Below, in pieces: positions 1 to 29,655 of a DNA stretch of 64,000 nt. The position numbers and the translations under genes are program-made. The notes beneath the pieces are model-generated. The model ran no database searches. It was not told the DNA's origin and saw only the letters and a program-made list of their open reading frames with translations. Source of the DNA: an uncultured Chloroflexia bacterium (lineage in GTDB: Bacteria > Chloroflexota > Limnocylindria > Limnocylindrales > CSP1-4); NCBI GenBank assembly GCA_963707215.1, contig CAVPPB010000003.1, positions 544,001 to 608,000 of the forward strand, written 5' to 3'. Position 1 is the stretch's first letter. The number at the start of each line of letters is the position of its first letter.

Positions 1-1967
1 ATGTCGTCCGCGCGGGGCAGGCTCGGTGGCAGGTGGAGCTCCCAGAGTCGACGGCGGTCACCCTCCTCGGGCATCGGGAAGTCGACGATCACGTCGAGGC
101 GACGCAGGAACGCTTCGTCGAGGTTGGCGCGGAGGTTGGTCGTCAGCACGGCCAGCCCGTCGAAGCGCTCCATCCGCTGGAGGAGGTAGGCGATCTCGAC
201 GTTGGCGTATCGGTCGCGGGCATCCTTGACCTCGGAGCGCTTGCCGAAGATCGCGTCGGCTTCGTCGAACAGGAGGACCCCGTTGATCCGATCGGCCTCG
301 GCGAAGATGCGGTCCAGGTTCTTCTCCGTCTCGCCGATGTACTTGTCCACGACCGTGGCCAGGTCGATGACGTAGAGATCGAGCCCGAGGGCCGCTGCCA
401 CGACCTCGGCCGAGAGGGTCTTGCCGGTCCCGGAGTCCCCGGCGAAGAGGGCCGTCACGCCGCTCCCACGGCCGCCGGACCCGGCCAGGCCCCAGCCGTT
501 CAGCACCCGCTCGCGATGGCGGACGCGGGCGGTCAGCTCGTGGAGCTGGCTCAGGGGGTCGGGCGGCAGGACGAGGCCGGTCCAAGCGGCTGTCGCCTGG
601 ACCCGCCGCGCAAGGCGCTCGAGGCCGCCGGCATTCTGTGCTCGGGCACCGGCGGTGAGGTCCGATGCGACGAGCGGTCGCCGCTCGCTCGATGCCGCCC
701 GCCGGGCCGCGATCGCTGCCCGGCGGATCTGCTCGGGATCGAGGCGGAAGCCGGCCGTCGCGGCCACCGGGTCGAGGTCTGCGACCGCCGCGGCGCCGCC
801 AGCCCGAGGCTCGTCATCGGGCGGTCCGATGTCGGCTCCGAGGGCGATGTCCCAGGCGGCGCGGCGCTCGGGCTCCGCCAACAGTGGGACCTCAACGACC
901 AGCGGCACCTCGCGGGACCAGCCGGGATCCCAGCCGCGTGTCCCGATGAGGACCACCTGGCAGGGAGCCTCGGCGAACGCCCGGACGGCGGCGGCGCCGC
1001 GCTCGGCCAGCGGATCGAGGGGCCCGGCCAGGACGACGGCGCCGCGGAGACGAGCCTCCCGGATCACCTCGGCCGCGATGACCGCCGGGTCGTCGCCGCC
1101 GAGTCGCTCCAGGTCGATGCCGAGGGCGGGCTGTCCGACTCCTCGGATGGCCGCGGCGGCGAAGGCGAGCCCGGCCGATCCGGGCCGCTCCCGGAGATAG
1201 CACAGCGGCGTGCCGTCCTCGAGCGACCGGGCCAGCGACTCCGTCCCGTCCGGGCCGGTCGGGCTCGCCTCGAGGGCCAGGGCCTGGAGCTCGGGCTCCG
1301 GCCGATCGTCGCCCAGGAGGTGCGCAGTGACCCGGTCGGGCACTCGCAGGGCCCGGGTAAGGAACGGTCGTGACGGCTCCTCGACGATGACCAGGCCGCC
1401 GCTCACGAGAACCGCTCCGGGGGCGAGCCGTCGTCGTCCGTCCAGGCCACCCGGCGGATCGCCGGCCAGCTCGAGCGCGAGGCCCGCGCTGGCCCGCCGG
1501 CGCGACACGTCGTCGTGGAGGTACGCGTAGAGGCGCTCAAAGCGAGCATCGAGGTCAGGGGCGATCGCCACCAGCAGGATCAGCGTGTCGGCCTCGTCGA
1601 GCCCGAAGGACCGGGCCAGGCGGCGCAGCCGAAGATCGGCGCCACTCCCTTCCGCGTCGGCGGCGCGGGCGTCGAGCCGGGCTCGAGCAGCGGTCGTGTC
1701 AACCGGGTCCGCGTCCGCGGTCCGGGCGGGCCCCTCGAGCAGTTCGTCCACCTGGGCGTCGGAGATGTAGAGCCCCCGGAAGCGGTCGTCGGGCTCTGCG
1801 TCGGCCGCCCGGCGACGGTCGACGGCGGCACGGACCCGGGCCTCGACCAGCGCGACGTGTCCGTACAGGTCGGCCAGCGACGGGTCGTGGCCGGCCGCGG
1901 CGCGCTCCAGGGCCCGCTCCGCGCCAGAGGTCCGGCCGTCCTGGTCGGTGCTCGCGAAGGCGGCCAC
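1..1967 (-). CDS. CIS-associated AAA+ ATPase (Afp15/Pvc15-like), 3' end runs off the window
   Basis: Hand translation (not in the ORF track because it has no stop). GTG start at 1967, N-terminal DDRFRGLYISD, Walker A GDSGTGKT, VVDKYIGETEKNL, Walker B LLFDEAD, RYANVEIAYLLQRME, NLDEAFLRR. The start codon and the edge residues are in the same frame. Confidence 0.93.
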   Translation of the reverse strand, partial: MAAFASTDQDGRTSGAERALERAAAGHDPSLADLYGHVALVEARVRAAVDRRRAADAEPDDRFRGLYISDAQVDELLEGPARTADADPVDTTAARARLDARAADAEGSGADLRLRRLARSFGLDEADTLILLVAIAPDLDARFERLYAYLHDDVSRRRASAGLALELAGDPPGGLDGRRRLAPGAVLVSGGLVIVEEPSRPFLTRALRVPDRVTAHLLGDDRPEPELQALALEASPTGPDGTESLARSLEDGTPLCYLRERPGSAGLAFAAAAIRGVGQPALGIDLERLGGDDPAVIAAEVIREARLRGAVVLAGPLDPLAERGAAAVRAFAEAPCQVVLIGTRGWDPGWSREVPLVVEVPLLAEPERRAAWDIALGADIGPPDDEPRAGGAAAVADLDPVAATAGFRLDPEQIRRAAIAARRAASSERRPLVASDLTAGARAQNAGGLERLARRVQATAAWTGLVLPPDPLSQLHELTARVRHRERVLNGWGLAGSGGRGSGVTALFAGDSGTGKTLSAEVVAAALGLDLYVIDLATVVDKYIGETEKNLDRIFAEADRINGVLLFDEADAIFGKRSEVKDARDRYANVEIAYLLQRMERFDGLAVLTTNLRANLDEAFLRRLDVIVDFPMPEEGDRRRLWELHLPPSLPRADD

Positions 1968-1969
1968 GG

Positions 1970-2845
1970 TCAGGGCCGCGAGATCCCGCGGACACGGACG
2001 ATGCGACCCTCGCCGAACCCAGCGATGTCCGGGGGCGTGCCGGCGACCGGCGGCTCGGCGTCGGCGTCCCTGGTGCCCTTCGTTCGGCGTCGTCGCCCCC
2101 CGGCCGCCTCGTGAGCCGTGGGCGATCCGTCGGTCGTGGTCGGGTGCCGCAAGCCGGTCGCGCCGCCCTGGACGATCTCCTCCTGGAGGGCCGCGTCGCC
2201 GGGCCCGAGCCGTCGAGCTGCCCGACGAGACGGTCGGCCGTGGTCGGAGCCGATCCGCTCGGACGCTCCGTCGGGGGAACCGATCCCGAGCATCGGGCCC
2301 TCGAGGACCGGCGCCGCGACCTCGGCGGTGACGTCCGGGTCGAGCGGCGCGATGGCGATCAGGTCGAGTGACGGCTTCAGCTCCCCGCCGAGCGCCGACC
2401 ACACGTCGGCGACGGAGCGGTCCTGGGGTGGGGGCTGACCGACCAGCAGGTAGACGGGGTATGGGGCGTCAGCGAGGGCCCCGCCAACCAGTTCGACCGG
2501 GATGAACTCGTGACGTACGAGGGTGGCGAGACATGCCGCGAGGAGGCGGTGCTCGTCCTCCGGACGCTGGGTCCATGCCGTGATCAGGTACGACAGCCGG
2601 AAGCGACGTGCCGGCCGGCGTCGTCCGCCGACCAGGCCGGTGGCCGGGTCCCGGACGTCCTCGCGGGCGATCTCGCGGCGGGGCAGGTCCTCACGGATGT
2701 CGTACAGGTACAGGTCGATCGTCGGCGCGTTGCGGCGCGCGACCCACTCCTTGGTCGGTGCATCGAACTGCAGCTCGACCCGGGAGCCGTCGAGCGCCTC
2801 GCGCCGGATGAGGGCCTCGAGCGCCGAATCCACGTCCGGGATCAT
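1970..2845 (-). CDS. Pvc16/DUF4255-family CIS cap/terminator protein
   Basis: MIPDVDSAL...FDAPTKEW..RRNAPTIDLYLYDIRED...LSYLITAW...EDEHRLL...WSALGGELKPSLDL. Lies next to the ATPase in a CIS locus. Confidence 0.85.
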   Translation of the reverse strand: MIPDVDSALEALIRREALDGSRVELQFDAPTKEWVARRNAPTIDLYLYDIREDLPRREIAREDVRDPATGLVGGRRRPARRFRLSYLITAWTQRPEDEHRLLAACLATLVRHEFIPVELVGGALADAPYPVYLLVGQPPPQDRSVADVWSALGGELKPSLDLIAIAPLDPDVTAEVAAPVLEGPMLGIGSPDGASERIGSDHGRPSRRAARRLGPGDAALQEEIVQGGATGLRHPTTTDGSPTAHEAAGGRRRRTKGTRDADAEPPVAGTPPDIAGFGEGRIVRVRGISRP

Positions 2846-3024
2846 CGCGTCCAGTCTCGTCCACGGCCCGGAGACGGGACCCTGGCCGGCGGGCAGCCGA
2901 TGGGGCCGCCGAGGCTGCCCGAACGGGCCAGGCCGGTCGCCCTCTCGCCCGTCCGGCAGGTCCTTGTCGTGCCTCGGCGGCGGTGGGAGCCTCGACCCGT
3001 ACGCACACCGCAAGGAGTCGTCAC

Positions 3025-4541
3025 ATGCCGAACTACCTGTCACCCGGCGTCTACGTGGAGGAGGTGCAGGCCGGATCACGACCCATCGAGGGTGTCGGGA
3101 CCGCGGTCGCGGCATTCGTCGGCCTCGCCGAGCAGGGCCCCTTCAACGAGCCGCGCCTCGTCACCAACTGGGGTCAGTTCACCGGCACCTTCGGCGAGTT
3201 CATCGAGGGGTCGTACCTCGCCCACGCTGTCTACGGGTACTTCCTCAACGGCGGTGGGGCGTGCTACGTCGTCCGCGTCGGCGCTGACGGCTCGATGCCC
3301 GTCGCGCGAGCGGAGCTGCCTTCGGACAAGGATCCAGCGACCGCCGCCATGCGGGTCGTCGCCCTGGAGCCCGGGCCCGCGGGCAACGACATCTCGGTCG
3401 AGGTGGCCGAGGCGAGCGAACCCGGCGAGGGCGTCTTCAAGCTCATCGTCAAGCAGGACGGCAAGCCCGTCGAGACATTCGACAACGTGACGACCGGCCG
3501 CGGCAAGCAGAGCGTCGCCACTGTCGTCAAGACCCAGTCCAAGCTGATCACGCTCGAGGAGGTCGGCAGCGTGGCCCCGGCGGTCGGCGCCAAGATGGCC
3601 CTCGCCGGGGGAGCGACGAGCGTTCCGGCCACGGTCAGCCCCGACGACTACGTCGGCAACGCCGCCGACCGGACCGGCTTCGCCGGCCTCGAGGCGATCG
3701 ACGAGGTCACGATGCTCTGCGTCCCCGACCTCATGGCCGTCTACGAGCAGGGCGGGATCGACCTGGAAGGTGTCCAGGCGGTCCAGATGGCCACGATCGC
3801 GCACTGCGAGCTGATGGGCGACCGGGTCGCCATCCTCGATGCCCCGCCCGGCCTGAACGCCATGCAGATCAAGGAGTGGCGCGAGGAGAAGGCCGGCTAC
3901 GACTCGAAGTACGCCGCCCTGTACTGGCCGTGGATCAAGGTCTTCGATCCGCTCGCTGGACAGGCCCGGTTCGTCCCGCCGTCGGGCCACATGGCCGGGA
4001 TCTGGGCGCGCAGCGATGACGATCGGGGCGTCCACAAGGCCCCGGCGAACGAGGCCGTCCGCGGCGCGATCTCACTGGAGCTCCAGATCACGAAGAGCGA
4101 GCACGACCAGCTCAACCCATCCGGGATCAACGCGATCCGATCCTTCCCCGGCCGCGGCATCCGCGTCTGGGGTGCCCGGACGCTGTCGTCCGACCCGGCC
4201 TGGCGCTACCTCAATGTGCGGCGGCTCTTCAACTACGTCGAGGAGTCCGATCCTCGAGGGGACGCAGTGGGTCGTCTTCGAGCCCAACGACCTGCGCCTC
4301 TGGGAACGGGTCAAGCGGACCATAAACGCATTCCTGCTCGGCGTGTGGCGGGATGGGGCGCTCTTCGGGGCCACGCCCAACGAAGCGTTCTACGTCAAGT
4401 GCGACGCCGAGACCAACCCACCCGACGTCGGTCGACCGCGGTCAGCTCGTCGTCGAGGTCGGGATCGCTCCGGTCAAGCCGGCCGAGTTCGTGATCTTCC
4501 GGATCGCGCAGTTCTCGGGCGGGGCCGCGCTGAGCGAGTAG
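3025..4541 (+). CDS. Contractile tail sheath protein, interrupted by two +1 frameshifts (about 4247 and about 4421-4431)
   Basis: MPNYLSPGVYVEEV..GSRPIEGVGT, YAALYWPW, PPSGHMAG, RGVHKAPAN, IRVWGARTLS, WRYLNVRRL. Continues in shifted frames as ILEGTQWVVFEPND and VEVGIAPVKPAEFVIFRI. AAGGAG RBS. Removing 2 bases gives a 504-aa ORF. Confidence 0.92.
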
Positions 4542-4581
4542 TCACGACGGTCGAGCCGACCCAGGGAAGGAGAGGCGGTCC

Positions 4582-5037
4582 ATGGCACGAGGTCTTCCGA
4601 GCCTGCCGAACGATGCGATCGGCGGCGCCAACTTCGCCCTCGAATGCGACGGCATCGAGATCAGCCAGTTCCAGGAGGTGACGGGCATCTCGCAGGAGCG
4701 AGAGGTCACCACGGTCAAAGAGAACGGGCCCGACGGCCAGCTCCTCATCAAGCAGCTGCCCGGACCACCCAAGCCGCCGACGATCACCCTCAAGCGGGCG
4801 GCCAACATGGACAAGGCGATCGCCGACTGGTACGAGGAGGCGCGGACCAAGATCGGATCGGCCCGGCGCAACGGCTCGGTCATCGCCTACGACTTCGAGT
4901 ACAACGAGGTGGCCCGCTGGAACTTCCTCGCCGGGTGGCCATCGAAGCTCGAGATCACCGGTCTCAAGGCCGCGGCCAATGAGCCCGCCATCGAGACGCT
5001 GACCATCACGGCGGAGTACATCGAGCGGGTGAAGTGA
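4582..5037 (+). CDS. Major tail tube protein (T4 gp19/Afp1-like)
   Basis: FQEVTGIS, ITLKRA, RRNGSVIAYD...VARWNFLAGWPSK...AIETLTI; follows the sheath gene; GGAAGGAGAGG RBS. Confidence 0.92.
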   Translation: MARGLPSLPNDAIGGANFALECDGIEISQFQEVTGISQEREVTTVKENGPDGQLLIKQLPGPPKPPTITLKRAANMDKAIADWYEEARTKIGSARRNGSVIAYDFEYNEVARWNFLAGWPSKLEITGLKAAANEPAIETLTITAEYIERVK

Positions 5038-5038
5038 C

Positions 5039-5446
5039 ATGCTCACGGCCGATGCTCCGGCCGCCGCGACGGCCGGGCTGACGACCGAGTTCCCGTTCGT
5101 CCTGCCGCGGGGCTTCGTCGATGACGAGGGGATCGTCCATCGGGACGGCACCATGCGTCTCGCGACCGCTCGCGACGAGATCCTGCCGCAGCGGGACCGC
5201 CGGGTCCAGGAGAACTCGGCCTACCTGACGGTCCTGCTGCTGTCCCGGGTCGTGACCCGGCTCGGCTCGGTCACCCAAGTGACCCCGGCCACGATCGAGA
5301 ACCTGTTCGCGTCGGACCTGGCCTTCCTCCAGGACCTCTATCGGCGCATCAACGCGGAGGGAACGAGCCAGGCGGCTGTCACCTGCCCGTCCTGCAAGCA
5401 CGAGTTCGCGATCGACCTGGCGGGTGGTCCGCCGGGGGGATCGTGA
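5039..5446 (+). CDS. Tail assembly chaperone-like protein (P2 gpE/lambda gpG position)
   Basis: TEFPFVLPRGFVD..G..HRDGTMRLATARDEI...LLSRVVTRLG...IENLFASDLAFLQDLYRRIN and a C-terminal CPSC; directly after the tube gene. Confidence 0.8.
   Translation: MLTADAPAAATAGLTTEFPFVLPRGFVDDEGIVHRDGTMRLATARDEILPQRDRRVQENSAYLTVLLLSRVVTRLGSVTQVTPATIENLFASDLAFLQDLYRRINAEGTSQAAVTCPSCKHEFAIDLAGGPPGGS
5434..5440 (+). promoter_or_regulatory. Candidate -1 programmed ribosomal frameshift heptamer G_GGG_GGA
   Basis: CCG GGG GGA TCG TGA in frame 0; the -1 frame reads GGG GGG ATC GTG ACG TAC into the 5443 ORF with no stop. Fits X_XXY_YYZ phasing. Confidence 0.5.
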
Positions 5447-5598
5447 CGTACGCGCCTGAGCGGCTCCTCGAGGAGGTCGCGTACGTCGCCTACCACCTGC
5501 ACTGGCCCCTCGAGGAGCTCCTCGACCTGGAGCACCCGGACCGCCGCCGCTTCATCGAGGAGATCGACCGGCTGAACCGACGAGCCGAGGAGGACTGA
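5443..5598 (+). CDS. Small CIS protein (DUF6760-like; resembles P2 GpE' segment), 51 aa
   Basis: Hand translation MTYAPERLLEEVAYVAYHLHWPLEELLDLEHPDRRRFIEEIDRLNRRAEED*. GTGA overlap with the upstream stop, in the -1 frame. Below the ORF-track size cutoff. Confidence 0.8.
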   Translation: MTYAPERLLEEVAYVAYHLHWPLEELLDLEHPDRRRFIEEIDRLNRRAEED

Positions 5599-5606
5599 TC
5601 GAGGCC

Positions 5607-7526
5607 ATGGACCTGGCTGGGATCTGGCATCGGCTCGTCGGCGGCGAGACCCCGCCTGCCGCCGCGGTCGAGCGACCGGCGGGCGACTCTTGGCGCCGCC
5701 TCGAGCCCATCCGGCCGGTGAGCCGACCGCCGCAGCTCGTCGGGCAGCGCCGCCTCCATGCCTCCGACCTGCCGTCGGTGCCGCCGCTCCGGACGGCGCT
5801 CCAGCCGCTCGGCCACGCCCGCTCGCTGGAGGTCCCCCCGGGCCTCGCCGAGGGGCTGGCCCGGCCAGCGGTCCTCGAGCCGGGCGAGCCGCTGCCCGCC
5901 TCGGTCGGATCCGCCGAGCCCTCGCGGGCCGTGGCAGCCGGGCACGCGACCCGCTGGTCGAGCGCCGTGGGGTCGACTGCCGAGCCCGTCGCAACGGCAG
6001 AGCCGTCGGTCGGACCAGAGGACCGGCCCGGACCCCCGGTCGGCGACGGCCCCGCCGCCCTCACGGTCGCCTCGGCTGGGTCGGTCCGCGAGCTGGAACG
6101 ACCGGTCGGCTTCATCGGCCATCCGAGGACGCCTGCGCCCGTCGCGGCGGCGTCGGCCGGGTCCGCCGCCGGCGCCCCCGCCGACCCGGAGGTGATCCCG
6201 GTCGCGGGGGCTGCGACGTCCGCCGACACGCGCGCTGACGCGTCCGTGCCGTCGCCGGACCCGGCAGCGGCTGCGGCGGCGCCGACCACCCGGGGCCGAG
6301 CTGGCCAGGCGAGCGTGCGAGCGGCCACTGCCGGAGCCGCGACCGTCCAGGAGAACCGGTCCGTGACCGAGCCGGCCAGCGCTGCGAAACGGGCTGCCCC
6401 CGGAGCGTCGGGAGCGCAGCCCGGCCCGACCGTCCGGCCCCGCCGGATCCGCATCGGGCTGCCGCTCGGGACCTCGCTCGAGTCGGTCGCAGCGACGGCT
6501 GCCTCGCCCGAGCCGGTCGCCCGCGCCACCGGTGGCGCCGTCCAGCGGCGGGCCGACCTGCCGGAGGTGCCCAGCCTCCGATGGACCGATCCGGGGCGGA
6601 CCATCGCCCCGCCGGAGCTCGAGGTCGTCCGGGGCCGCCTGCTGACAGTCGGCCCCGGCGTCATCAGGCCGCTCGTCGGCGGCCTCACCCCGACGATCGA
6701 CGGCCCGGCGGGCGGTGCACCGGACGCGGAGGGTGGGGCGCCCGACGAGGCGACCGAGCAGTCTCGTCCGCTCGAGGTCATCGGCATGCGCTTCGATCTC
6801 CCTGGGGTCGAAGGCTCCGCAGACCCGGCGACCGCAGCGGTCCGCCCAGGGGTAGCTGGGTGGTCGACCGGGGCCGGCTCTCGGCCAGCGGCTCTCATCG
6901 CTACCTCGACGTCGCAGACCACCCGACCATCCACCGCTGGCACCGGGCCGTTCGCCGGTGGGCCGGGCCCGACGACCGGCGGTGCCAGCAGCCAGCGGTC
7001 GGCCTCGCCTGGGCCGGACCCGATCAGACCACTCGCGGCGGCCGGGCTCCGGCGCTCGCCGGCCGGCCCAGGGCCGCGCCCGGTCCCGTCAACGACGCCT
7101 TTGGCGCCCCGGTCCCGCGCGAGTTCCGTGCGTGTCGGACCAGCGCTCACGGACCGACACGGGACGGCCTCCGTGCCGCCGGTCTCGGCGGGCAGCGCGC
7201 CCGGGACCGGGTCCCCGAGCGAGGTCACCGCGATCACCGGACAGCGTCGGATCGACGGTCCGATCGGGTCGGTCGAGGGTCACGGCGCAGCGGCGGTCGC
7301 GGACCGGACCACGCCTGTCGAGCCACCGGAGACACCGGTCCAGCGGCGCGACGGAGCGGACGCCGGGACGACGCTCTCGGCCGGCTCGGACGCCGGGCAG
7401 CCCGGCTCGGACAGCGAGCTCGACGCACTGGCCGGACGGCTCTACGAGCGGATGCGGCTGCGGCTGCGGTCGGAGCTCTTGGTGGATCGCGAGCGGGCAG
7501 GCGTCCTCATCGACACGGGGCGGTGA
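5607..7526 (+). CDS. Ala/Pro-rich low-complexity CIS protein in the tape-measure gene position
   Basis: 639-aa ORF between the chaperone genes and tube 2. N-terminal WRRLEPIRP..LQPLGHARS motif and C-terminal helix ELDALAGRLYERMRLRLRSELLVDRERAG. Confidence 0.7.
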   Translation: MDLAGIWHRLVGGETPPAAAVERPAGDSWRRLEPIRPVSRPPQLVGQRRLHASDLPSVPPLRTALQPLGHARSLEVPPGLAEGLARPAVLEPGEPLPASVGSAEPSRAVAAGHATRWSSAVGSTAEPVATAEPSVGPEDRPGPPVGDGPAALTVASAGSVRELERPVGFIGHPRTPAPVAAASAGSAAGAPADPEVIPVAGAATSADTRADASVPSPDPAAAAAAPTTRGRAGQASVRAATAGAATVQENRSVTEPASAAKRAAPGASGAQPGPTVRPRRIRIGLPLGTSLESVAATAASPEPVARATGGAVQRRADLPEVPSLRWTDPGRTIAPPELEVVRGRLLTVGPGVIRPLVGGLTPTIDGPAGGAPDAEGGAPDEATEQSRPLEVIGMRFDLPGVEGSADPATAAVRPGVAGWSTGAGSRPAALIATSTSQTTRPSTAGTGPFAGGPGPTTGGASSQRSASPGPDPIRPLAAAGLRRSPAGPGPRPVPSTTPLAPRSRASSVRVGPALTDRHGTASVPPVSAGSAPGTGSPSEVTAITGQRRIDGPIGSVEGHGAAAVADRTTPVEPPETPVQRRDGADAGTTLSAGSDAGQPGSDSELDALAGRLYERMRLRLRSELLVDRERAGVLIDTGR

Positions 7527-7547
7527 GGGAGGCAGCGGAGGACGACG

Positions 7548-7982
7548 ATGAGCGGGACGGCCGTCTCGACCCGGTTCTTGGTCGAGATCAACGGGACGGA
7601 GGAGGACTGGTCCCTCGGCGAGTGGAACAAGGTCGAGGGGATCGCCGTCGAACGCGACGTCCACGAGCAGCGCGAGGGCGGCCAGAACGACTTCGTCCAC
7701 CGGCTGCCGGGACGGGCCAAGTACCAGAACGTCAAGCTCAGCCGCCCCATCACCCAGGCGACCGCCGACGTGGCCGCCTGGGTGTCGCGGGTCCGAACCA
7801 TCGACCGGGCTACCACCGCCACGATCACCGTGCTCGACTCGGAGGGCGAGGAGGTCACCGCCTGGACGCTCCAGGCCGTCTTCCCGGCCCGATGGACCGG
7901 ACCGACCCTCGAGTCGGGAGCCAACCAGGTGGCCATCGAGGTCCTCGAGCTGGCTCACCACGGCTTCCTGCCGAGCGCCTGA
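7548..7982 (+). CDS. Second tail tube protein (gp19-like, Afp5-type)
   Basis: REGGQNDFVHRLPGRAKYQNVKLSRP...WTLQAVFPARWTGPTL...VAIEVLELAHHGF. Confidence 0.9.
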   Translation: MSGTAVSTRFLVEINGTEEDWSLGEWNKVEGIAVERDVHEQREGGQNDFVHRLPGRAKYQNVKLSRPITQATADVAAWVSRVRTIDRATTATITVLDSEGEEVTAWTLQAVFPARWTGPTLESGANQVAIEVLELAHHGFLPSA

Positions 7983-7985
7983 GCC

Positions 7986-8672
7986 ATGGGCGAGACGGCG
8001 CTCGAGCGCGCGTTCCTCCGGGTCGTCGAGGGTGACGTCCCGGTGACGGAGATCGAGTTCCAGTTCAACCCGGCCGAGTACACGGTCACGAAGAGCTCGA
8101 ACTGGACCCGGCCCCGGATGAAGGGCGGGAAGAAGACGGGCAAGCCGGAGTTCAACGGCTCGAACCCGCAGACACTCCAGATGGAGATCTTCCTTGACCA
8201 GTCAGCCGGCGGCGTGGACGGCGTCCAGGCGGCCGTCGCCACCCTCCTGACCTGGGTCCTCCCCACCCCGTCCTCGGTCGCCAAGAAGAAGCCGCAGCCA
8301 CCGCTCTGCGTCTTCGAGTGGGGGCACAACGTCGCTCTTGTCGGCTTCCGGGCCTATCTCAAGCAGGTCAACGCCAAGTACCTGATGTTCGACCAGGACG
8401 GCAACCCGACCCGGGCGACGGCGACGATCACGCTCGAGGAGGCGCCGGTCGAGCCCGCCAAGCAGAACCCCACGTCGGGCGCGATCCGGGGCCGCCGGAG
8501 CCATCTGCTGATCGAGGGCGAGGATCTCGCCGGGCTGGCCTGGCGCGAGTACGACGACCCGGGGCTGTGGCGCGGCATCGCCGCCTTCAACGGCATCGAC
8601 GACCCACTCCGGGTGCGGCCGGGTACGCGGATCCTCATCCCGACCGCCGACGAAGCCCGGCGGCTGGCGTAG
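7986..8672 (+). CDS. CIS tube initiator with C-terminal LysM-like domain (Afp7-like)
   Basis: FQFNPAEY, FEWG, YLMFDQDGNPTRATATITLEE, QNPTSG, LAGLAWREYDDPGLWRGIAAFNGIDDP. Confidence 0.9.
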   Translation: MGETALERAFLRVVEGDVPVTEIEFQFNPAEYTVTKSSNWTRPRMKGGKKTGKPEFNGSNPQTLQMEIFLDQSAGGVDGVQAAVATLLTWVLPTPSSVAKKKPQPPLCVFEWGHNVALVGFRAYLKQVNAKYLMFDQDGNPTRATATITLEEAPVEPAKQNPTSGAIRGRRSHLLIEGEDLAGLAWREYDDPGLWRGIAAFNGIDDPLRVRPGTRILIPTADEARRLA

Positions 8673-8682
8673 GACGGGCGCG

Positions 8683-10398
8683 ATGACCGAGGCCTTCTCC
8701 CAGCAGCTCGAGGTCGAGATCGACGGCGGGCCGCTCGATCCCGCGGCCGAGGCCCTGCTCGAGGCGGTCGTGACCGACGACAGCACCCACGTCCCCGACA
8801 TGGTCGTGCTGACCTTCCGTGACGTCGAGCGGACCGTCCTCGAAACGGCCCGTATCCGGATCGGCTCGACGATCCGCATCCGGGCGACGCCGATCGGCGG
8901 CTCGGAGCCGATGTCCATCTTCGACGGCGAGGTGACCAGCCTCGAGGGCGAGTACACCGAGGCCGGGACCCTCGCGATCGTCCGCGGCTACGACCCATCG
9001 CATCGGCTCTTCCGGGGCGGCCACACGACCACGTATCTCGGCATGAAGGACTCGGACATCGCCGGCGATGTCGCTCGGCGAGCCGGTCTACGGGTGGGCA
9101 CGATCGACGATTCCGGACCGGTCCACGATCACGTCTCGCAGCACAACCAGACCGACATGGCCTTCCTCCGCGGGCGCGCCGCGGAGATCGGCTTCGAGGT
9201 CGGGGTCCGTGATGGGACGTTCGAGTTCCGGCGGCCGCAGCGCTCGACCGAGGGTCCGGCCGAGGGCGACTTCGAGTCGGACGACCCGCTCCAGCTGGTC
9301 TTCGGCCGAGATCTCCTCGAGTTCCGGCCCCGGGTGACCTCGTCGGGCCAGGTGAGCCGGGTCCAGGTCCGCGGCTGGGATCCCGGCGCCAAGGAGGGCG
9401 TCGTCGGCGAGGCGGATGCGACCACGACCTCGACCGATGTCCGCGACACGCCGGCCGATCTCGCCGCCGTGTTCGGGAACCCGGTCCTCGTGGCCACCGA
9501 GCGACCGCTCCGGACCCAGGCCGCGGTCGATGCTGCCGCCCAAGCCCTGGCCGAGGTCGTCGGCGGCGTCGCCGTCGAGGCCGAGGGCATCGCCCGTGGC
9601 AACCCGCGGATCAAGCCCGACGCGGCGGTCAGCGTCTCGGTCGTCGGCGAGCCGTTTGCCGGCCGCTACCTCGTCACCGCCGCCACCCACCGCTTCGACC
9701 GCCAGGGCTACCGGACGCGGTTCGTCGTCTCGGGCCGCACGGAGCGCTCGCTGCTCGGCCTGACCGGCGGCAACGGCCACGACGGCCACCTCGGTCGGGT
9801 CGAGGGTGTGGTCTGCGCCCTGGTCACCAACAACGACGACCCCGATCGGCTCGGGCGGGTCAAGCTCAAGTTCCCCTGGCTGTCCGACGACTACGAGTCC
9901 GACTGGTCCCGCCTCGCGACGCCGGGCGCCGGCCCCGACTCCGGCGTGACCTTCCTGCCCCAGGTCAACGACGAGGTCCTCGTCGCGTTCGAGCAGGGCG
10001 AGATCCAGCGCCCGTACGTCCTTGGTGGTCTCTGGAATGGCGTGGACAAGCCACGCCTCGGGGACGGGCTCGTGGACAACGGAGCCATCAACCGCCGCGG
10101 GATCGTCTCCCGGCGCGGGCATCGGTTCGTCCTCTTCGACGGCCAGGGCGACTCGGGGATCGCGCTGCTGACGTCAGACGACCGGCTCAGCATCGCCCTC
10201 CACGAGACCGGGACCGAGATCCATGTCCGCTCCGACGGGACGATCCTCATCGAGGGCACCCGCGACATCACGGTCAAGAGCTCGGCCAACGTGAGCGTCG
10301 AGGCGAGCGGGACGCTGACGCTCAAGGGTCAGGGCGGCGTGACCATCACCTCGAGCGGCGTCGTCGACATCGACGGCTCGGTCATCCAGCTGAACTGA
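8683..10398 (+). CDS. VgrG-like hub/spike protein (gp27+gp5, Afp8-like)
   Basis: HVSQHNQTDMAFL, VQVRGWDP, OB-fold VTNNDDPDRLGRVKLKFPW...FLPQVNDEVLVAFEQG..RPYVLGGLWNG, beta-repeat C-terminus ending IQLN. Confidence 0.93.
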   Translation: MTEAFSQQLEVEIDGGPLDPAAEALLEAVVTDDSTHVPDMVVLTFRDVERTVLETARIRIGSTIRIRATPIGGSEPMSIFDGEVTSLEGEYTEAGTLAIVRGYDPSHRLFRGGHTTTYLGMKDSDIAGDVARRAGLRVGTIDDSGPVHDHVSQHNQTDMAFLRGRAAEIGFEVGVRDGTFEFRRPQRSTEGPAEGDFESDDPLQLVFGRDLLEFRPRVTSSGQVSRVQVRGWDPGAKEGVVGEADATTTSTDVRDTPADLAAVFGNPVLVATERPLRTQAAVDAAAQALAEVVGGVAVEAEGIARGNPRIKPDAAVSVSVVGEPFAGRYLVTAATHRFDRQGYRTRFVVSGRTERSLLGLTGGNGHDGHLGRVEGVVCALVTNNDDPDRLGRVKLKFPWLSDDYESDWSRLATPGAGPDSGVTFLPQVNDEVLVAFEQGEIQRPYVLGGLWNGVDKPRLGDGLVDNGAINRRGIVSRRGHRFVLFDGQGDSGIALLTSDDRLSIALHETGTEIHVRSDGTILIEGTRDITVKSSANVSVEASGTLTLKGQGGVTITSSGVVDIDGSVIQLN

Positions 10399-10407
10399 GG
10401 GTCCAAG

Positions 10408-10791
10408 GTGGGTTCGCCGGCGATCGTCATGAACGACCGGATCCAGGGGATGTGCGCCCACCAGATCCCCAACCCCGCCTCGGGCATCCCCCAGCCATCC
10501 GGCCCGTTGCCCTTCAGTGCCCCGGTCACCCTGGGAACCCAGGCGACGGTCCTCGTCGGCGGCAGACCCGCCGCCGTCATGGGCTCGTCGGGACTCAACA
10601 CGCCGCCGCACGTCGGTCTCCACGCCAGCGACCCGTACCTGGCCCCGCCGATGCAGGTCGGACGGATCGTCTCGGGCAGCCCGACGGTCCTGGTCGGCGG
10701 CCAGCCGGCCGCGACCGCCAGCTCGTCGGCGACCTGCTGCGCGACGCCGGGCAGCCTCGTCCCCACGGTCACGACCGTGCTCATCGGCTAG
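10408..10791 (+). CDS. PAAR-like spike tip protein
   Basis: Two TVLVGG(R/Q)PAA repeats and Cys/His residues; directly after VgrG. Confidence 0.85.
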   Translation: MGSPAIVMNDRIQGMCAHQIPNPASGIPQPSGPLPFSAPVTLGTQATVLVGGRPAAVMGSSGLNTPPHVGLHASDPYLAPPMQVGRIVSGSPTVLVGGQPAATASSSATCCATPGSLVPTVTTVLIG

Positions 10792-10803
10792 GAGGTGAAG
10801 GAC

Positions 10804-11202
10804 GTGAGCAGCGAGTTCGTCGGCTCGGGCTGGGGCTTCCCGGTCGATGTCGACGCCACTGGCGGGGTCCGCCTCGTCAGCGAGCAGGTCGAGATCGAGC
10901 AGAGCATCCGGCTCATCCTGTCCACCGCCCCCGGCGAGCGACCGATGCGGCCGGAGTTCGGCTGCTCCATCCACGACCACGTCTTCGACAGCGTCGACGG
11001 TCGGACGACCGGGCGCGTCGTCTACGCCGTCCGCGAAGCCCTCCGCCGCTGGGAGCCCCGGATCGACGTCCTCGACATCTCGGTCGGTCGCCATCCGACC
11101 GAGGCGGACGCCGTCCTGCTCGACATCCGCTACACGATCAGCGACTCGAACGATCCCCGGAACCTCGTGTTCCCCTTCTACATCATCCCGGGCGAGGGCT
11201 GA
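10804..11202 (+). CDS. Baseplate wedge gp25/GPW-family protein (Afp9-like)
   Basis: GSGWGFP, IEQSIRLILSTAPGERPMRPEFGC, WEPRI, NLVFPFY. AGGAGG RBS favours the GTG at 10804. Confidence 0.93.
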   Translation: MSSEFVGSGWGFPVDVDATGGVRLVSEQVEIEQSIRLILSTAPGERPMRPEFGCSIHDHVFDSVDGRTTGRVVYAVREALRRWEPRIDVLDISVGRHPTEADAVLLDIRYTISDSNDPRNLVFPFYIIPGEG

Positions 11203-11232
11203 CCCCGCCGGCCACAAGGGAGCGCAGCAACG

Positions 11233-13182
11233 ATGGCCCTGCCCGTCCCGAACCTCGACGATCGCCGCTTCCAGGACCTCGTCGACGACGCCAAGCGGCT
11301 GATCGCCCAGCGCTGCCCCGAGTGGACCGACCACAACGTCCACGACCCCGGCGTCACGCTGGTCGAGCTGTTCGCCTTCATGACCGACCAGCTGCTGTAC
11401 CGGCTGAACCGGGTCCCCGATCGTCAGTACGTCGCCTTCCTCGACCTGCTCGGCGTGCGCCTGTTCCCGCCGACCGCCGCCGGGACCGCGCTGACCTTCT
11501 GGCTGTCGGCCCCGCAGCCGGACACGATCCGGATCCCGACCGGGACCCAGGCGGCCACGATCCGGACGGAGACCGACGAGGCGATCATCTTCGAGACGAC
11601 CGACGACCTCGTGATCCCGAGGACCGAGCTGCGGGTGGTCCGCTCGAGCCTCGACGGCAAGGCCTACCGCGACCATGCCGAGGCGCTCGCTCGCCGCACG
11701 CCCTTCTACTGCTTCGACGACGTGCCGGCACCGGGCAACGCCCTGTACGTCGGCCTGTCCGAGCCGGCCCCGTCGAGCGCGGTGCTGCTCCGCTTCAGCT
11801 GTGACATCGAGGGCGTCGGCGTCGATCCCGAGCGACCGCCGCTGGCCTGGGAGGCCTGGGACGGCGACGAGTGGGTGGCCTGTGAGCTGGAGCGAGATGA
11901 GACCGGCGGGCTCAACCGCGACGGCGACGTCGTGCTCCACGTGCCGCGCGGCCACGCCGCCTCGATGGTCGACCGCGAGCGGGCCGGCTGGATCCGGGCC
12001 CGGGTCGTCGAGGCCGAGGCGGATCAGCCCACCTACAGCGCCTCGCCGTCGATCGGCGGGCTGACCGCGACGACGATCGGCGGGACGGTGACGGCGGTGA
12101 ACGCCCAGCTCGTCGACCTCGACGAGTTGGGCAGCTCCGAGGGGGTGCCCGGGCAGCGGTTCGAGGTCCGGCGTCGCCCGATCGTGCCGGCCGGCAGGCC
12201 CCCGGTCCTCGAGGTCGTCGGCGACGACGGCGAGCCCGTCGAGTGGATCCTCGTCGAGGACTTCGCCTCGTCGGGTCCGACCGATCCACACTTCGCCCTC
12301 GACCCGGTGACCGGCGAGGTCCGCCTGGGACCGGCCGTCCGCGATGTCGACGGCTCGCTCGTCCACTACGGCGCCGTCCCAGCGAAGAACGCGGTGCTGC
12401 GCCTCCGCGGCTACCGGAGCGGCGGCGGGGAGCGCGGCAACGTCGCCGCACGGGCGATCAGCGTCCTGCGCTCGTCGATCCCCTACGTCAGCCGGGTCGA
12501 GAACCGGCGGGCCGCGACGGGCGGCGTCGACGGCGAGCGGATCGAGAACGCGAAGGCCCGGGGACCGATGCTCCTGCGGACCCGCGGCCGGGCGGTGACA
12601 GCGGACGACTTCGAGCACCTCGCCAGGAGCGCCGCTCCCGAAGTGGCCCGGGTCAAGGCGGTGCCGGCCGCCGACCCGGCCGAGGCCGGGGCCGTCCGGG
12701 TGCTGGTCGTGCCGGCGGTCTCCGGCCCGGACGGCCGGCTGGCCTTCGAGCAGCTGGTCCCGCCTGAATCGACGATGCAGCGGATCACCGACCGCCTCGA
12801 GGGGGCCCGGGTCATCGGGACCAGGGTGGTGGTCGAGCCGCCTGTCTACCGCGGCGTGACCGTGGTCGCCAAGCTACGGGCCCGGCCGCGGACCAACCCG
12901 ACCCGCCTGTCCGATCATGCCCTCGAGACTCTCTACCGCTACCTGCACCCGATCGAGGGAGGCCCGGACGGCGACGGCTGGCCGTTCGGTCGGCCCGTCT
13001 CGGCGGCCGAGCTGCACGCGGTGCTGCAGCGGCTACGTGGGACGGAGCTCGTTGACGACCTGCGGCTCTTCGGCGCGGATCCGGTGACGGGGCAGCGCGG
13101 CCAGGCCACGACGCGCCTAGAGCTCGAGCCGACGGCGCTGGTCTTCTCGTACGAGCACCAGGTGCTCGTGGAGGCCGGTTGA
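11233..13182 (+). CDS. Baseplate J-like assembly protein (Afp11-like)
   Basis: MALPVPNLDDRRFQDLVDDAK..CPEWTDHNVHDPGVTL, YRSGGGERGNV, ATGGVDGE, RAVTADDFE, GWPFGR. Confidence 0.93.
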   Translation: MALPVPNLDDRRFQDLVDDAKRLIAQRCPEWTDHNVHDPGVTLVELFAFMTDQLLYRLNRVPDRQYVAFLDLLGVRLFPPTAAGTALTFWLSAPQPDTIRIPTGTQAATIRTETDEAIIFETTDDLVIPRTELRVVRSSLDGKAYRDHAEALARRTPFYCFDDVPAPGNALYVGLSEPAPSSAVLLRFSCDIEGVGVDPERPPLAWEAWDGDEWVACELERDETGGLNRDGDVVLHVPRGHAASMVDRERAGWIRARVVEAEADQPTYSASPSIGGLTATTIGGTVTAVNAQLVDLDELGSSEGVPGQRFEVRRRPIVPAGRPPVLEVVGDDGEPVEWILVEDFASSGPTDPHFALDPVTGEVRLGPAVRDVDGSLVHYGAVPAKNAVLRLRGYRSGGGERGNVAARAISVLRSSIPYVSRVENRRAATGGVDGERIENAKARGPMLLRTRGRAVTADDFEHLARSAAPEVARVKAVPAADPAEAGAVRVLVVPAVSGPDGRLAFEQLVPPESTMQRITDRLEGARVIGTRVVVEPPVYRGVTVVAKLRARPRTNPTRLSDHALETLYRYLHPIEGGPDGDGWPFGRPVSAAELHAVLQRLRGTELVDDLRLFGADPVTGQRGQATTRLELEPTALVFSYEHQVLVEAG

Positions 13183-13183
13183 G

Positions 13184-13831
13184 ATGCGCGGGATGGTGCC
13201 AGGGCTCATCAATCCCCATCCCCTGGGCCGGGGTCTCCCGGGCGTCTACCAGGAAGAGGATCCGTTCACCATGCGGATGACCGAGGCGCTGGACGAGGTG
13301 CTCGCCCCGGTGGTCTCGACGCTCGACAATCTGCCCGCGTACTTCGATCCGCATCTTGCGCCGGAGGACTTCGTGGGATGGCTGGCTGGGTGGGTGGCCT
13401 TCGAGCTCGACGAGACCTGGCCGATCGCGACGCGCCGAGAGGCGGTGGCCCGCGCGGTCGACCTCCTGCAACGTCGCGGCACGGCCGGTGGGCTGGCCGA
13501 CGAGATCACCCTCGTCACCGGTGGCGAGGCCGAGATCGTCGAGAACGGGGGGACCGCCTGGTCCCTCGACCCTGGCAGCGAGATGGTCGGCTCCCGGAAG
13601 CCGTCGCTTCTCGTGCGGGTACGGGTCAAGGATGCGGCCGCGGTCGATGCCGAGCGCCTCGACCGCATCGTCCGGGCGGCCAAGCCCGCCCACGTACCGC
13701 ACCGGGTCGAGGTCATCGGCGGCGATGCCGAGCCGAAGGCCAGGCGCAAGCCGACACCGGACGCGTCGTCGGGCCAGCATGCCAAGGCCGAGCCGACAGC
13801 TCCTCCGCCAGAGGAGGGTGCCGATGGCTGA
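13184..13831 (+). CDS. Phage tail protein I-like baseplate protein
   Basis: LPGVYQE..F....DEVLAP..STLDNL.AYFDP.LAPEDF..WLAGWV, RRGTAGGL, AKPAH. Confidence 0.88.
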   Translation: MRGMVPGLINPHPLGRGLPGVYQEEDPFTMRMTEALDEVLAPVVSTLDNLPAYFDPHLAPEDFVGWLAGWVAFELDETWPIATRREAVARAVDLLQRRGTAGGLADEITLVTGGEAEIVENGGTAWSLDPGSEMVGSRKPSLLVRVRVKDAAAVDAERLDRIVRAAKPAHVPHRVEVIGGDAEPKARRKPTPDASSGQHAKAEPTAPPPEEGADG

Positions 13832-13964
13832 TGAAGCTGACGGAACGGCAGGCACGCGTCGAGGGCCGCGCTGACGGCGAGGTGCAACGCGTACGCCGGA
13901 CGCCATCGGTGCCCGCACCGATGCGGCTCGGTCACCGTATCCTTGACAGCGACCTCGTGACCGA

Positions 13965-15323
13965 GTGGAGCCAGCCGAGTTGATCGTCTGCGGGAACTGC
14001 GGCCATCGCAACGAGGAGTCCGATGCATTCTGCGGGAGCTGCGGCCAGTTCCTGGAGTGGGTCGGGCGACGTGAAGCTGCCGGCGGGGAGCTGACCGGCC
14101 CGGAGCCGGAGCCGGAGCTAGCGCCCGAGCCGGAGCCTGAACCGGAGCCGGAGCCGGAGCCGGAGCTAGCGCCCGAGCCGGAGCCCGCGCCCGCGCCCGA
14201 GCCGGAGCCTGAACCGGTGCCGGTGCCGGAGCCGGAGCCTGAACCGGAGCCGGAGCCGGAGCCGGAGCCTGAACCGGAGCCGGAGCCGGAGCCGGAGTCG
14301 GCTCTCCGACGCGGGCGGCCCGCCACGGCCGTCGCTATCACGCGTGGTCCAGAGCTTGCGCCCTCGACGGCGCCCCCACCTCCGCCGGACCGCGAGCCTG
14401 GTCTGGTCCGCGAGACGTCCGTCCAGCCGGGCCCTGTCCAGCCCGCCGCCCGTCGCCCCGAGCCGGCGGCCCAGGCGCCGGATCAGCCGGAAGCCCGCAA
14501 GCCGACCGCAGCCGTCGCTGCCCCACCGCGGCCCCGCCCATCGGCGGCGGCGCCCCGCCGCGAGGCGAAGCCCGGCGACCTCATCTGCTCTTCGTGCGCC
14601 GAGCCGAACGACCCGAGCCGCAAGTTCTGCCGGCGCTGCGGGACCAGCCTCGCGACCGCGATCGTCGAGAAGCCGCTGCCGTGGTGGCGGCGGATCTTCC
14701 GTCGCCAGCCGAAGGTGTACGCGGCCGGCGAGCGGACTGGTCGGATGCAGCGCGGCGAACGTCGGTCGGGTCGCCTCGCCACGAGGTCGATCGTCGGGCT
14801 GCTCTTCATCGTCCTGGTCGGTGCCGGCGTCATCGGATTCGTCGCCGTCCCGTCGTTCCGTCAGATGGTCACTGACGCTGTGTCGCCCGCCCTCGATCAG
14901 GTGCGCCGGATCGTGGCGCCTGAGCTCGCGATCGAGCGCCCCGTCTCCGTGGCCAGCGACGACCAGCTGCCCGACCATCCCGTCAGCCTGCTCTTCGACT
15001 CGTTCACGAACACCGATTGGCGGGCAGCTGGCAGCGCTCCGACCGTGGTGGTCGAGTTCGACGAACCGGTCGATCTCGGTGCGATCATCGTCCACTCAGG
15101 CTCATCCGACGGCTTCGTGGACCTTCGCCGACCCGCCGTCTTGACCATCGTGTTGCCCGATGGCGCGACCACCTCTCTGCAGCTCGAGGACGTCCATGAT
15201 CCGCAACGGTTCGACCTGTCGGGCTCGGCGGTCGACCGGCTGGAGATCCGGGTCAGCGAGACGAATGGACCCGCCGGCGCGGCCGTTGCGCTGTCCGAGA
15301 TCGAGTTGTTCGCGCAGCGCTGA
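13965..15323 (+). CDS. Bitopic membrane protein with two Zn ribbons, (PE)n spacer, one TM helix and C-terminal beta-sandwich domain (CisA-like CIS membrane adaptor)
   Basis: CGNC..FCGSCG and [18 protein letters not shown], hydrophobic [21 protein letters not shown]-terminal [10 protein letters not shown]...VALSEIELF. Last gene of the CIS operon. Confidence 0.75.
14100..14297 (+). repeat. Coding hexamer tandem repeat (CCGGAG)n encoding a Pro-Glu tract
   Basis: About 200 bp of CCGGAG units with recurring variants CTAGCG and CCTGAA, indicating higher-order duplication. Confidence 0.95.
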
Positions 15324-18353: not shown

Positions 18354-18596
18354 TATGGTGACGAACCAGGACGGTAATCGTCCCACCGACGATCCGGCGC
18401 GTCCATCCGCCCGACCGTCTCGTGGGCCGAGTCTCCCTCGCGGTCCATCGGATCGCCAGTGCCGGGCGGCTGGGCTGACGTCCCCATCGACCCGAACGAC
18501 CCTTGCCGGGGGGTGGCAGACGGTGCCACCATGCCGCCATCCAGCGGCTGCCCAGCGGCCCACGGGGCCGCAGCCGCGTCACCAAGGAGGGATCCG

Positions 18597-23095: not shown

Positions 23096-23141
23096 GCCAT
23101 CCCTCCTGGCTGAGGCGGTCGTCGTGTCGCCCCGGACGATG

Positions 23142-29557: not shown

Positions 29558-29655
29558 CGCGGCAGGGTACCGCGCCGGGCCCGCGGTCCGGGGCGCCCGC
29601 GTGGCGGGACTCCCAGACGCTACCCTCTTGGGGTGAGCGACCGGACCGCGCCCCG

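Follow-up and report, generated by a model that had tools for sequence, protein, structure and literature searches.

Gene Cluster for a Likely Streptomyces-Type Contractile Injection System with a CisA Homolog in a Limnocylindrales-Like Member of the Chloroflexota

The cytoplasmic contractile injection system (CIS) of Streptomyces is the best-studied phage-tail machine that is turned on its own producer, and its firing needs CisA. In Streptomyces coelicolor, the particles (CIS-Sc) are described as assembling free in the cytoplasm and contracting in a CisA-dependent manner upon stress, followed by cell death (PMC12237407, PMC10066040). Is a machine of this kind also encoded in a bacterium of another phylum, and would it act there in the same way? 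We address this question for a CIS gene cluster that fills the first 15,323 positions of a 64,000-nucleotide (nt) stretch of DNA, referred to here as the window (positions 544001 to 608000 of the 1.73-Mb contig CAVPPB010000003.1, assembly GCA_963707215.1). The reading that we favor, with somewhat more confidence than doubt, is that the locus encodes a Streptomyces-type CIS of a Limnocylindrales-like member of the Chloroflexota and that this system would act inside the cell that produces it. The cluster can be called class IId-like in the dbeCIS scheme, given its grouping with the Streptomyces and actinomycete loci that published papers assign to that class.

Kinship of the structural proteins carries much of this reading. 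Each of the eight structural proteins searched against the PDB found its best solved-structure match in a chain of CIS-Sc; the gp25-like and PAAR proteins lie outside these eight and were classified by Pfam only. Codon-position G+C and Pfam matches resolve the cluster into two divergent arms, with the cap and ATPase genes on the minus strand and the genes from the sheath to a terminal membrane protein on the plus strand. The features are as follows, with the Pfam E value and, where searched, the best PDB chain.

1 to 1975, minus strand: AAA+ ATPase, Cis15/Afp15-like, with a winged-helix domain, cut by the left edge of the window (WHD 1.4e-26, AAA 1.1e-22)
2845 to 1970 (approximate), minus strand: Pvc16/Cis16 cap, or tail terminator (Pvc16_N 4.3e-35; chain 9gts_0A, 4e-52, residues 91-303 of the open reading frame [ORF] against 1-212 of the chain)
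2846 to 2982, no strand: divergent intergenic region with presumed promoters, where the coding signal switches strand
2983 to 4541, plus strand: sheath, Cis2 (Phage_sheath_1 8.5e-24; chain 8bky_A/9gtp, 3.7e-153, 513.5 bits)
4582 to 5037, plus strand: inner tube, Cis1a-like (T4_gp19 1.2e-25; chain 8bl4_v/9gtp, 3.3e-17)
5039 to 5446, plus strand: conserved small ORF of 135 amino acids (aa), 53 to 79% identical in 63 of 80 related loci, Streptomyces among them
5607 to 7526, plus strand: low-complexity ORF of 639 aa, rich in Ala, Pro, and Gly, in the tape-measure position, of which the final ~40 to 70 residues alone are conserved in relatives
7548 to 7982, plus strand: second tube protein, a Cis1b-like tube initiator layer (T4_gp19 2.9e-30; chain 9gtp_a, 3e-31)
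7986 to 8672, plus strand: tube initiator or spike hub, Cis7-like (CIS_tube 6.8e-24; chain 9gtp_P, 1e-43)
8683 to 10398, plus strand: VgrG-like spike, Cis8 (Phage_base_V 7e-27; chain 9gtr_q, 1.5e-87)
10408 to 10791, plus strand: PAAR tip (PAAR_motif 3.6e-09)
10795 to 11202, plus strand: gp25-like sheath initiator, Cis9 (GPW_gp25 2.1e-24)
11233 to 13182, plus strand: baseplate wedge J, Cis11 (Baseplate_J 2.6e-15; chain 9gtp_1K, 4.6e-219, full length, residues 1-646 against 1-647)
13184 to 13831, plus strand: baseplate wedge I or tail I, Cis12 (Tail_P2_I 1.9e-12; chain 9gtp_E, 3e-37)
13965 to 15323, plus strand: CisA/SCO4242-family bitopic membrane protein of 452 aa (sequence features, Pfam zinc ribbons, NCBIfam NF047619)

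The structures 9GTP, 9GTR, and 9GTS are CIS-Sc models of Casu et al. 2025 (PMC12237407), and 8BKY is cited once in Casu et al. 2023 (PMC10066040). After CIS-Sc, the next solved match of the sheath is the haloarchaeal chain 9ezm_A from Halogeometricum borinquense (292.7 bits), and scores fall off steeply beyond it: 114.9 bits for Pvc2, 97.5 for All3325 of Anabaena, 93.7 for AlgoCIS (7adz), 93.5 for Afp2 (92 to 94 for Afp2/Afp3), 44 for T4 gp18, and 41 for R-pyocin. At 513 bits against CIS-Sc and 92 to 115 bits against Afp and PVC, the sheath thus stands apart from the released Afp/PVC types. The ATPase ORF, listed at 3 to 2402, truly starts between 1975 and 2402, has its stop 216 nt left of the window, and is 54% identical over 800 aa to its counterpart in one relative (G007). 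Neither the 135-aa nor the 639-aa ORF matched anything in Pfam, NCBIfam, or the PDB, and a tape-measure role for the latter is inferred from position only.

A first-pass annotation, made from the letters of the sequence, had proposed a full structural set running from the ATPase to tail I and ending in a bitopic membrane protein, and every part that it listed was recovered by Pfam. Its divergent ATPase-Pvc16 pair is borne out by Pfam and codon-position G+C on the minus strand, and the divergent promoter regions described for the S. coelicolor cluster (PMC10020575) offer a parallel. It had also called two tubes plus an initiator: the parts are present, although the cluster has three tube-family genes, and the initiator is not unrelated to the tubes; its best solved match is a 9gtp chain deposited as a "LysM domain-containing protein." Finally, it had given as a refuting outcome a sheath that clusters with the released Afp, PVC, or metamorphosis-associated (MAC) types or with prophages, against which the bit scores above speak, and had named the system Streptomyces-type and cytoplasmic, for which the eight CIS-Sc matches, the CisA homolog, and the missing fiber gene speak by kinship. 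No capsid, terminase, fiber, holin/endolysin, or type VI secretion system (T6SS) membrane-complex gene was found, as it had claimed, among the ORFs scanned in the window and the 20 kb to its left (some small ORFs lay outside the scan).

The terminal gene is the second pillar of the argument. It lies after Cis12, that is, at the cisA position, where an Afp/PVC-type cluster would carry a fiber gene after the wedge genes; none was found there among the ORFs scanned, and the CisA homolog fills the place. Its product runs from an N-terminal zinc ribbon (residues 7-28) through a PE-repeat linker to a second zinc ribbon (residues 208-229), a basic stretch, a single hydrophobic membrane helix (about residues 288-308), and a C-terminal domain of 145 aa. 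CisA is described as bitopic, with a long unstructured cytoplasmic arm and an outer domain of ~150 aa, and SCO4242 as encoded directly downstream of the baseplate wedge genes (PMC12237407); Vladimirov et al. ascribe to SCO4242 a putative Zn domain, rich in Cys, ahead of the helix and a C-terminal domain that resembles a carbohydrate module (PMC10020575). The single helix, long N-terminal arm, ~150-aa C-terminal domain, and Cys-rich Zn domain of the window's protein fit these traits.

For comparison, we fetched the 80 best public loci around Cis11 homologs. A Cis12 match was present in 78 of them, and in 12 cases the trailing ORF ran off the end of the locus, which left 66 complete ORFs behind Cis12. 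By simple criteria, 48 of these 66 combine a zinc-ribbon motif with a hydrophobic helix, and 44 match residues 281-452 of the window's protein in blastp at an E value of ≤1e-5. Both traits hold for 12/12 ORFs from Streptomyces/Streptomycetaceae. Against the Streptomyces proteins in the cisA position, E values for residues 281-452 range from 1.2e-17 (S. hoynatensis) to 2.9e-07, most of the others lying between 1e-12 and 1e-15. In an alignment of 36 sequences, motifs are common from Chloroflexota to Streptomyces, with D78 and W85 invariant, and a structure model built from this alignment (predicted local distance difference test score, 94.1) has a long helix followed by a beta-sandwich, with DOC/APC10, CBM32, and F5/8 type C (discoidin-like) domains as its best fold matches. 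NCBIfam NF047619, "NADase-type glycan-binding domain," scores 43.3 bits against a cutoff of 38. Judged by sequence, the terminal gene is a homolog of the CisA/SCO4242 family, in keeping with the terminal membrane adaptor that the first-pass annotation had placed at the end of the operon; the basic stretch before the helix only suggests an N-in/C-out topology. CisA-Cis11 binding is predicted, not shown, in the Streptomyces work (PMC12237407). When a complex of Cis11, represented by an alignment of 8 rows, and the first 290 residues of the CisA homolog was predicted, the median score was 0.30 against a mark of 0.32; this prediction, run without controls, speaks neither for nor against binding.

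Where does this cluster occur, and with whom does it group? A sheath gene is present in 8 of 41 near-relative genomes, the source genome included, namely, in 7 of the 24 other members of its family and in 0 of 16 members of a small-genome sister family. Across the phylum, Cis11 was found in 65 of 401 sampled genomes (a tally that includes G000, the source genome, and G262), with 5/23 in the window's own family, 7/8 in family f18, and 11/28 in family f24. The best 120 Cis11 matches listed are 68 to 83% identical to the window's protein. Identity is 59 to 75% within its own family, f18, and f8; 52 to 63% to Actinomycetota (55 to 58% to Streptomyces); and only 40 to 48% to other Chloroflexota families. 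The best 80 public loci divide into 20 from Chloroflexota, 4 from Dormibacterota, and 56 from Actinomycetota.

A Cis11 tree of 61 rows (IQ-TREE, LG+C20, quick search) places the window's protein in a clade of 18 Limnocylindria/Dormibacteria-type rows (SH-like approximate likelihood ratio test [SH-aLRT], 93) that joins one actinomycete metagenome-assembled genome (MAG) (SH-aLRT, 96). Both fall inside a 50-row clade with all 29 actinomycete rows (SH-aLRT, 100; branch length, 0.38), outside which lie 10 rows of other Chloroflexota families. Three rows (two Dormibacteraeota and one f8 genome) stand apart in another actinomycete subclade (SH-aLRT, 99). A topology in which the Chloroflexota rows all stay together is worse by 57.4 log-likelihood units (p-AU, 0.007) in an approximately unbiased (AU) test on 29 of the 61 rows under LG+G4, for a group defined by taxonomy but named after the tree had been seen. 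By its sequence, then, the window's Cis11 groups with actinomycete versions and not with those of other Chloroflexota. Together, the tree and the AU test indicate that the module crossed between Actinomycetota and Chloroflexota, in a direction that a tree rooted on the rows of other Chloroflexota does not fix. The order Cis11, Cis12, CisA-like gene, and convergent SARP regulator is kept in all four fetched loci of the window's clade.

An intracellular CIS in Chloroflexota, and its kinship to the Streptomyces system, is already published: Gaisin et al. 2026 report an intracellular CIS imaged in Roseiflexus, with related clusters in other Chloroflexota and in Deinococcota (PMC12998442), and Vladimirov et al. 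2023 mention class IId CIS in Chloroflexi (PMC10020575). The lineage of Gaisin et al. shares with the window the phylum, a broad class IId kinship to Streptomyces, and the proposed intracellular mode. However, its clusters (Roseiflexus, Thermogemmatispora, and Deinococcus) are placed by the authors in class IId outside the Streptomyces clade, and for Roseiflexus they report no close cisA homolog, whereas the window has one and its Cis11 is closer to actinomycetes than to other Chloroflexota families. No zinc-ribbon ORF stood behind cis12 in any of five loci of the 40 to 48% lineage, which may or may not include Roseiflexus. A full-text literature search found no paper on contractile injection in lineages named after Limnocylindr- or Dormibacter-. 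Of modest interest here are the CisA homolog, the affinity of the module to actinomycetes, and the additional membrane genes.

Some further observations concern divergent loci. In three of the five loci of the 40 to 48% lineage (L129, L130, and L134; genomes G307, G329, and G244), cis12 is followed by a protein of ~1,080 aa with what looks by eye like a kinase-like N terminus, then a PapD-like segment and a helix. Again by eye, an FHA-like stretch opens the ORF of L133 and L134 that ends together with the cis12 match. One member of the window's family (G021, locus L012) carries a divergent CIS with a Cis11 that is 47% identical and lies outside the actinomycete/Limnocylindria clade; its cis12 is followed first by a CisA-like gene and next by a gene with a match to the PapD-like N-terminal part of the PD40 ORF.

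The host is, by sequence, a Limnocylindrales-like member of the Chloroflexota. All six organism-named rows among the best 120 relatives of the window's housekeeping protein GlmM are Chloroflexota (3 Limnocylindrales, 2 Chloroflexota, and 1 Chloroflexi), and all five organism-named rows among the best 120 Cis11 relatives listed are "Candidatus Limnocylindrales bacterium." In two genomes of the window's own family (G296 and G288), the Cis11 rows do not differ from those of public records titled Chloroflexota. A probable Chloroflexota, nonstreptomycete host had been proposed at the outset, and these GlmM and own-family Cis11 rows agree with it. An actinomycete host, a guess from the G+C content of the window (72% throughout) and the SARP regulator, was dropped in view of the GlmM and Cis11 relatives. 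The assembly comprises 3.26 Mb (given elsewhere as 3.3 Mb) in five contigs at 84.8% completeness, with a single sheath locus and with a 16S rRNA gene on the same contig as the window.

The cluster continues past the left edge of the window with DUF4157, DUF922, and LuxR genes and a three-gene membrane module, beyond which lie housekeeping-type genes. The additional features are listed below, in the coordinates of the 20-kb left-flank locus (L010) except for the last, which follows the CisA homolog in the window.

Left of the ATPase, minus strand: ORF of 93 aa
Left flank, minus strand: DUF4157 (eCIS core) protein of 278 aa with an HExxH motif and acidic repeats (Pfam)
17392 to 18258, minus strand: DUF922 protein of 288 aa with an HExxH-like motif, directly behind the DUF4157 gene (Pfam)
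Beyond DUF922, plus strand: LuxR-type regulator (Pfam)
About 16500 to 15257 (3.5 to 4.7 kb left of the window), minus strand: PapD-like membrane gene, Sco4256-like (Cep192_D3/PapD-like, 8.5e-09)
13192 to 15297, minus strand: PD40 beta-propeller protein with a signal peptide (Pfam)
12112 to 13179, minus strand: second CisA-like protein, with two zinc ribbons, a helix, and a NADase_transloc/discoidin-like domain (Pfam and sequence)
15324 to 18563 of the window, minus strand: SARP/AfsR-like regulator of 1,079 aa with AAA, winged-helix, and BTAD domains (Pfam BTAD, Trans_reg_C, AAA_22)

The first-pass annotation had asked what lies left of the window, naming DUF4157, fiber, and lysis genes; DUF4157 is there, and no fiber, lysis, capsid, or terminase gene was seen among the ORFs scanned in these 20 kb. 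The acidic repeats are the only addition in the DUF4157 protein, which has no further toxin domain. DUF922 is missing at the same place in G007, where the gap between DUF4157 and LuxR is only 144 nt, which fits a variable cargo slot. The PapD-like gene encodes an N-terminal PapD-like (Cep192_D3) domain, one helix, and a C-terminal beta-rich domain; this matches the architecture published for Sco4256-4258, the basis of the likeness being that architecture and not a comparison with Sco4256 itself. Its relatives adjoin CIS loci in many actinomycetes and Chloroflexota, including one Streptomyces locus. The second CisA-like gene and the PD40 gene possibly form an extra membrane module of the island. 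The SARP regulator is convergent with the cisA homolog, their stop codons abutting without a spacer; it recurs at the same place with 44 to 53% identity in the four fetched clusters of the window's clade and also in many of the 80 loci, and is a candidate regulator of the cluster. Elsewhere, the window encodes an 839-aa fusion of an APH-type phosphotransferase and a class III aminotransferase (20645 to 23164, minus strand) and a 1,303-aa adenylate/guanylate cyclase with AAA_16 and TPR domains (29551 to 33462, plus strand).

Set beside CIS-Sc (sco4242-sco4263; PDB 8bky, 9gtp, 9gtr, and 9gts) and the S. lividans SLP, the island is alike in gene content and order. The divergent cap/ATPase arm and the lack of a fiber gene are common to both (PMC10020575, PMC12237407), as are a CisA-family gene directly behind cis12, a LuxR regulator, a DUF4157 protein of small size, and, judged by architecture, a single-pass protein with a pilus-chaperone-like N terminus. 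It differs in its host, a member of the Chloroflexota with a 3.3-Mb genome; in the PE-repeat linker in the cytoplasmic arm of its CisA homolog; in having both a PAAR gene and, where a tape measure would be encoded, a long ORF of low complexity, CIS-Sc lacking a tape-measure gene according to Casu et al. 2025 (PMC12237407); and in carrying DUF922 rather than an Sle1-type protein behind DUF4157. It also adds the second CisA-like gene and the PD40 protein, and its sheath is broken as assembled.

By analogy with Streptomyces, the particles would form unattached in the cytoplasm. Under stress, the cytoplasmic arm of the CisA homolog might draw the baseplate (Cis11) to the producer's own membrane, while the outer discoidin-like domain of the homolog would sit in the wall. 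The sheath would then contract and release membrane-active cargo, which could kill or lyse the producer or part of the population. The tube of CIS-Sc is described as carrying the single-pass membrane proteins Sco4256-4258 (Streptomyces papers including PMC12237407), and Sle2 of S. lividans as a cargo adaptor (PMC13277306); the window's DUF4157 protein may play the same part as Sle2, with the DUF922 protein and the PapD-like membrane protein as candidate cargo. Whether this strain can fire at present depends on whether the frame changes in its sheath gene are real.

Those frame changes head the points that weigh against a working, producer-directed system. Codon-position G+C, measured at the third position (GC3), indicates that the coding frame of the sheath shifts by +1 near 4250 and again near 4430, within 180 nt, and the sequence has one extra base at each site. 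The annotated sheath ORF of 503 aa (2983-4494) consequently ends in out-of-frame sequence. The Sco4256-like gene in the left flank also shifts frame once, just after its membrane helix, where relatives stay in frame. The source strain was found in none of the indexed sequencing runs, the best of which held 0.26 of the sampled words. The homology of the terminal protein is to Streptomyces proteins identified by their cisA position, not to SCO4242 itself. Furthermore, the intracellular mode is inferred for this lineage from its genes, and in S. coelicolor the role goes with a mycelial life cycle, which Limnocylindrales-like bacteria with 3-Mb genomes are not known to have.

As assembled, the core gene set is therefore not intact, its sheath gene carrying the two frame changes; every other CIS gene is full length. 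The three pieces of the sheath are contiguous in one frame in four relatives (G007, G020, G002, and G021). Contigs from public sequencing runs are one base shorter wherever they span either site, at 4250 in two contigs of run X3 and one of X6 and at 4427-4431 in several of runs X1, X3, and X6. The contigs of runs X1, X2, X3, and X6 derive from related organisms only, so that they cannot decide whether the frame changes are assembly errors. Genome-wide, same-strand frame switches without a nearby stop number 9.6 per 100 kb in the source genome, against 3.9 for isolate loci (n = 23), 4.6 for MAG loci on long contigs (n = 15), and 3.0 for other MAG loci (n = 18), as counted by our own hidden Markov model of codon-position GC3, for which comparison with these control loci is the sole calibration. 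The raised rate suggests that indel errors, or else pseudogenes, are numerous in this assembly; with the five contigs and the 84.8% completeness, it points, without proof, to consensus indel errors. We also considered rampant frameshifting in the right half of the window, where ten ORF pairs or triples overlap, and rejected it; all are distinct whole genes (the ten checked encode RecO, an M19 dipeptidase, a GHMP kinase, a KsgA-like protein, a GNAT protein, a TsaB-like protein, TsaE, GlmM, YbbR, and CdaA). The interruption of the sheath may be either an assembly error or real decay.

If decay were real, the CIS would be a pseudogene cluster in this strain, its sheath and one effector-like gene broken, and no particles would form, whatever their type. 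Such an account would suit the three frame changes that fall within about 20 kb, two of them in the sheath gene and the third in the Sco4256-like gene, set against relatives with an unbroken sheath and ten other neighboring ORFs of the window in which no family is split over two ORFs. We nevertheless find it unlikely, since the excess of frame switches extends over the whole genome and fits consensus errors, as does the completeness, and since the remaining CIS genes are full length. A different mode of action is conceivable for an intact machine: the CisA-like protein might anchor the particle permanently, so that it fires outwards through the single-membrane envelope and kills on contact, in the manner of the haloarchaeal "archaeal T6SS." The CIS of H. 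borinquense, whose sheath is the second-best solved match, is described as a cytoplasmic particle that has its own anchor in the membrane of a single-membrane cell and serves contact-dependent antagonism (9ezm; PMC11566945); the window likewise encodes a bitopic protein as dedicated adaptor, its glycan-binding-type domain facing outward, and a PAAR tip, and its DUF4157/DUF922 pair could be secreted cargo. Its sequence relation to the haloarchaeal system is, however, much weaker than that to Streptomyces (293 against 513 bits), and the Streptomyces relatives are reported to have free-floating particles and self-directed death (PMC10066040). No toxin-immunity pair was recognized in the window, and no T6SS membrane-complex family appeared among the ORFs scanned in the window and left flank, the rest of the genome not having been searched for them. 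Outward, contact-dependent firing thus strikes us as quite improbable.

Particles freed by lysis to bind other cells, as in a released extracellular CIS (eCIS), are harder still to reconcile with the terminal protein. It does stand in the fiber position, its C-terminal domain does resemble CBM32/discoidin sugar-binding modules, and Vladimirov et al. first proposed a fiber role for Sco4242 (PMC10020575). Yet its membrane helix is strong and flanked by a basic stretch on the cytoplasmic side, and its Streptomyces homolog is described as a membrane protein found outside purified particles (PMC12237407). With Afp (Serratia), PVC (Photorhabdus), and AlgoCIS, the window shares the phage-tail-like core, the AAA ATPase, and the Pvc16 cap, but it has a membrane protein where they have a fiber gene (Afp13 equivalent), and its Cis11 is the short, 650-aa form of CIS-Sc. 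Since sheath similarity to Afp/PVC is also low and the scanned ORFs showed no lysis cassette, we give a released system very little credence. A Streptomyces-type CIS directed at its producer remains the reading that we prefer.

A broader proposal can be put forward tentatively, with more doubt than confidence: that the whole machine (particle, CisA adaptor, Sco4256-like membrane cargo, and SARP-type regulator) moved as one module between Actinomycetota and small-genome soil Chloroflexota of the groups named Limnocylindria and Dormibacteria and is still used there for CisA-triggered self-killing. If this were true, CIS-mediated regulated cell death would not be special to mycelial, developmentally complex bacteria. 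The exchange of a CIS module between phyla is documented here, and no new kind of system is revealed. Metagenomic relatives and the counts in f18 and the window's own family indicate that abundant uncultured soil Chloroflexota hold a CisA-equipped, actinomycete-type CIS, and these bacteria may offer a second phylum in which to ask whether CisA-dependent firing and regulated cell death are general.

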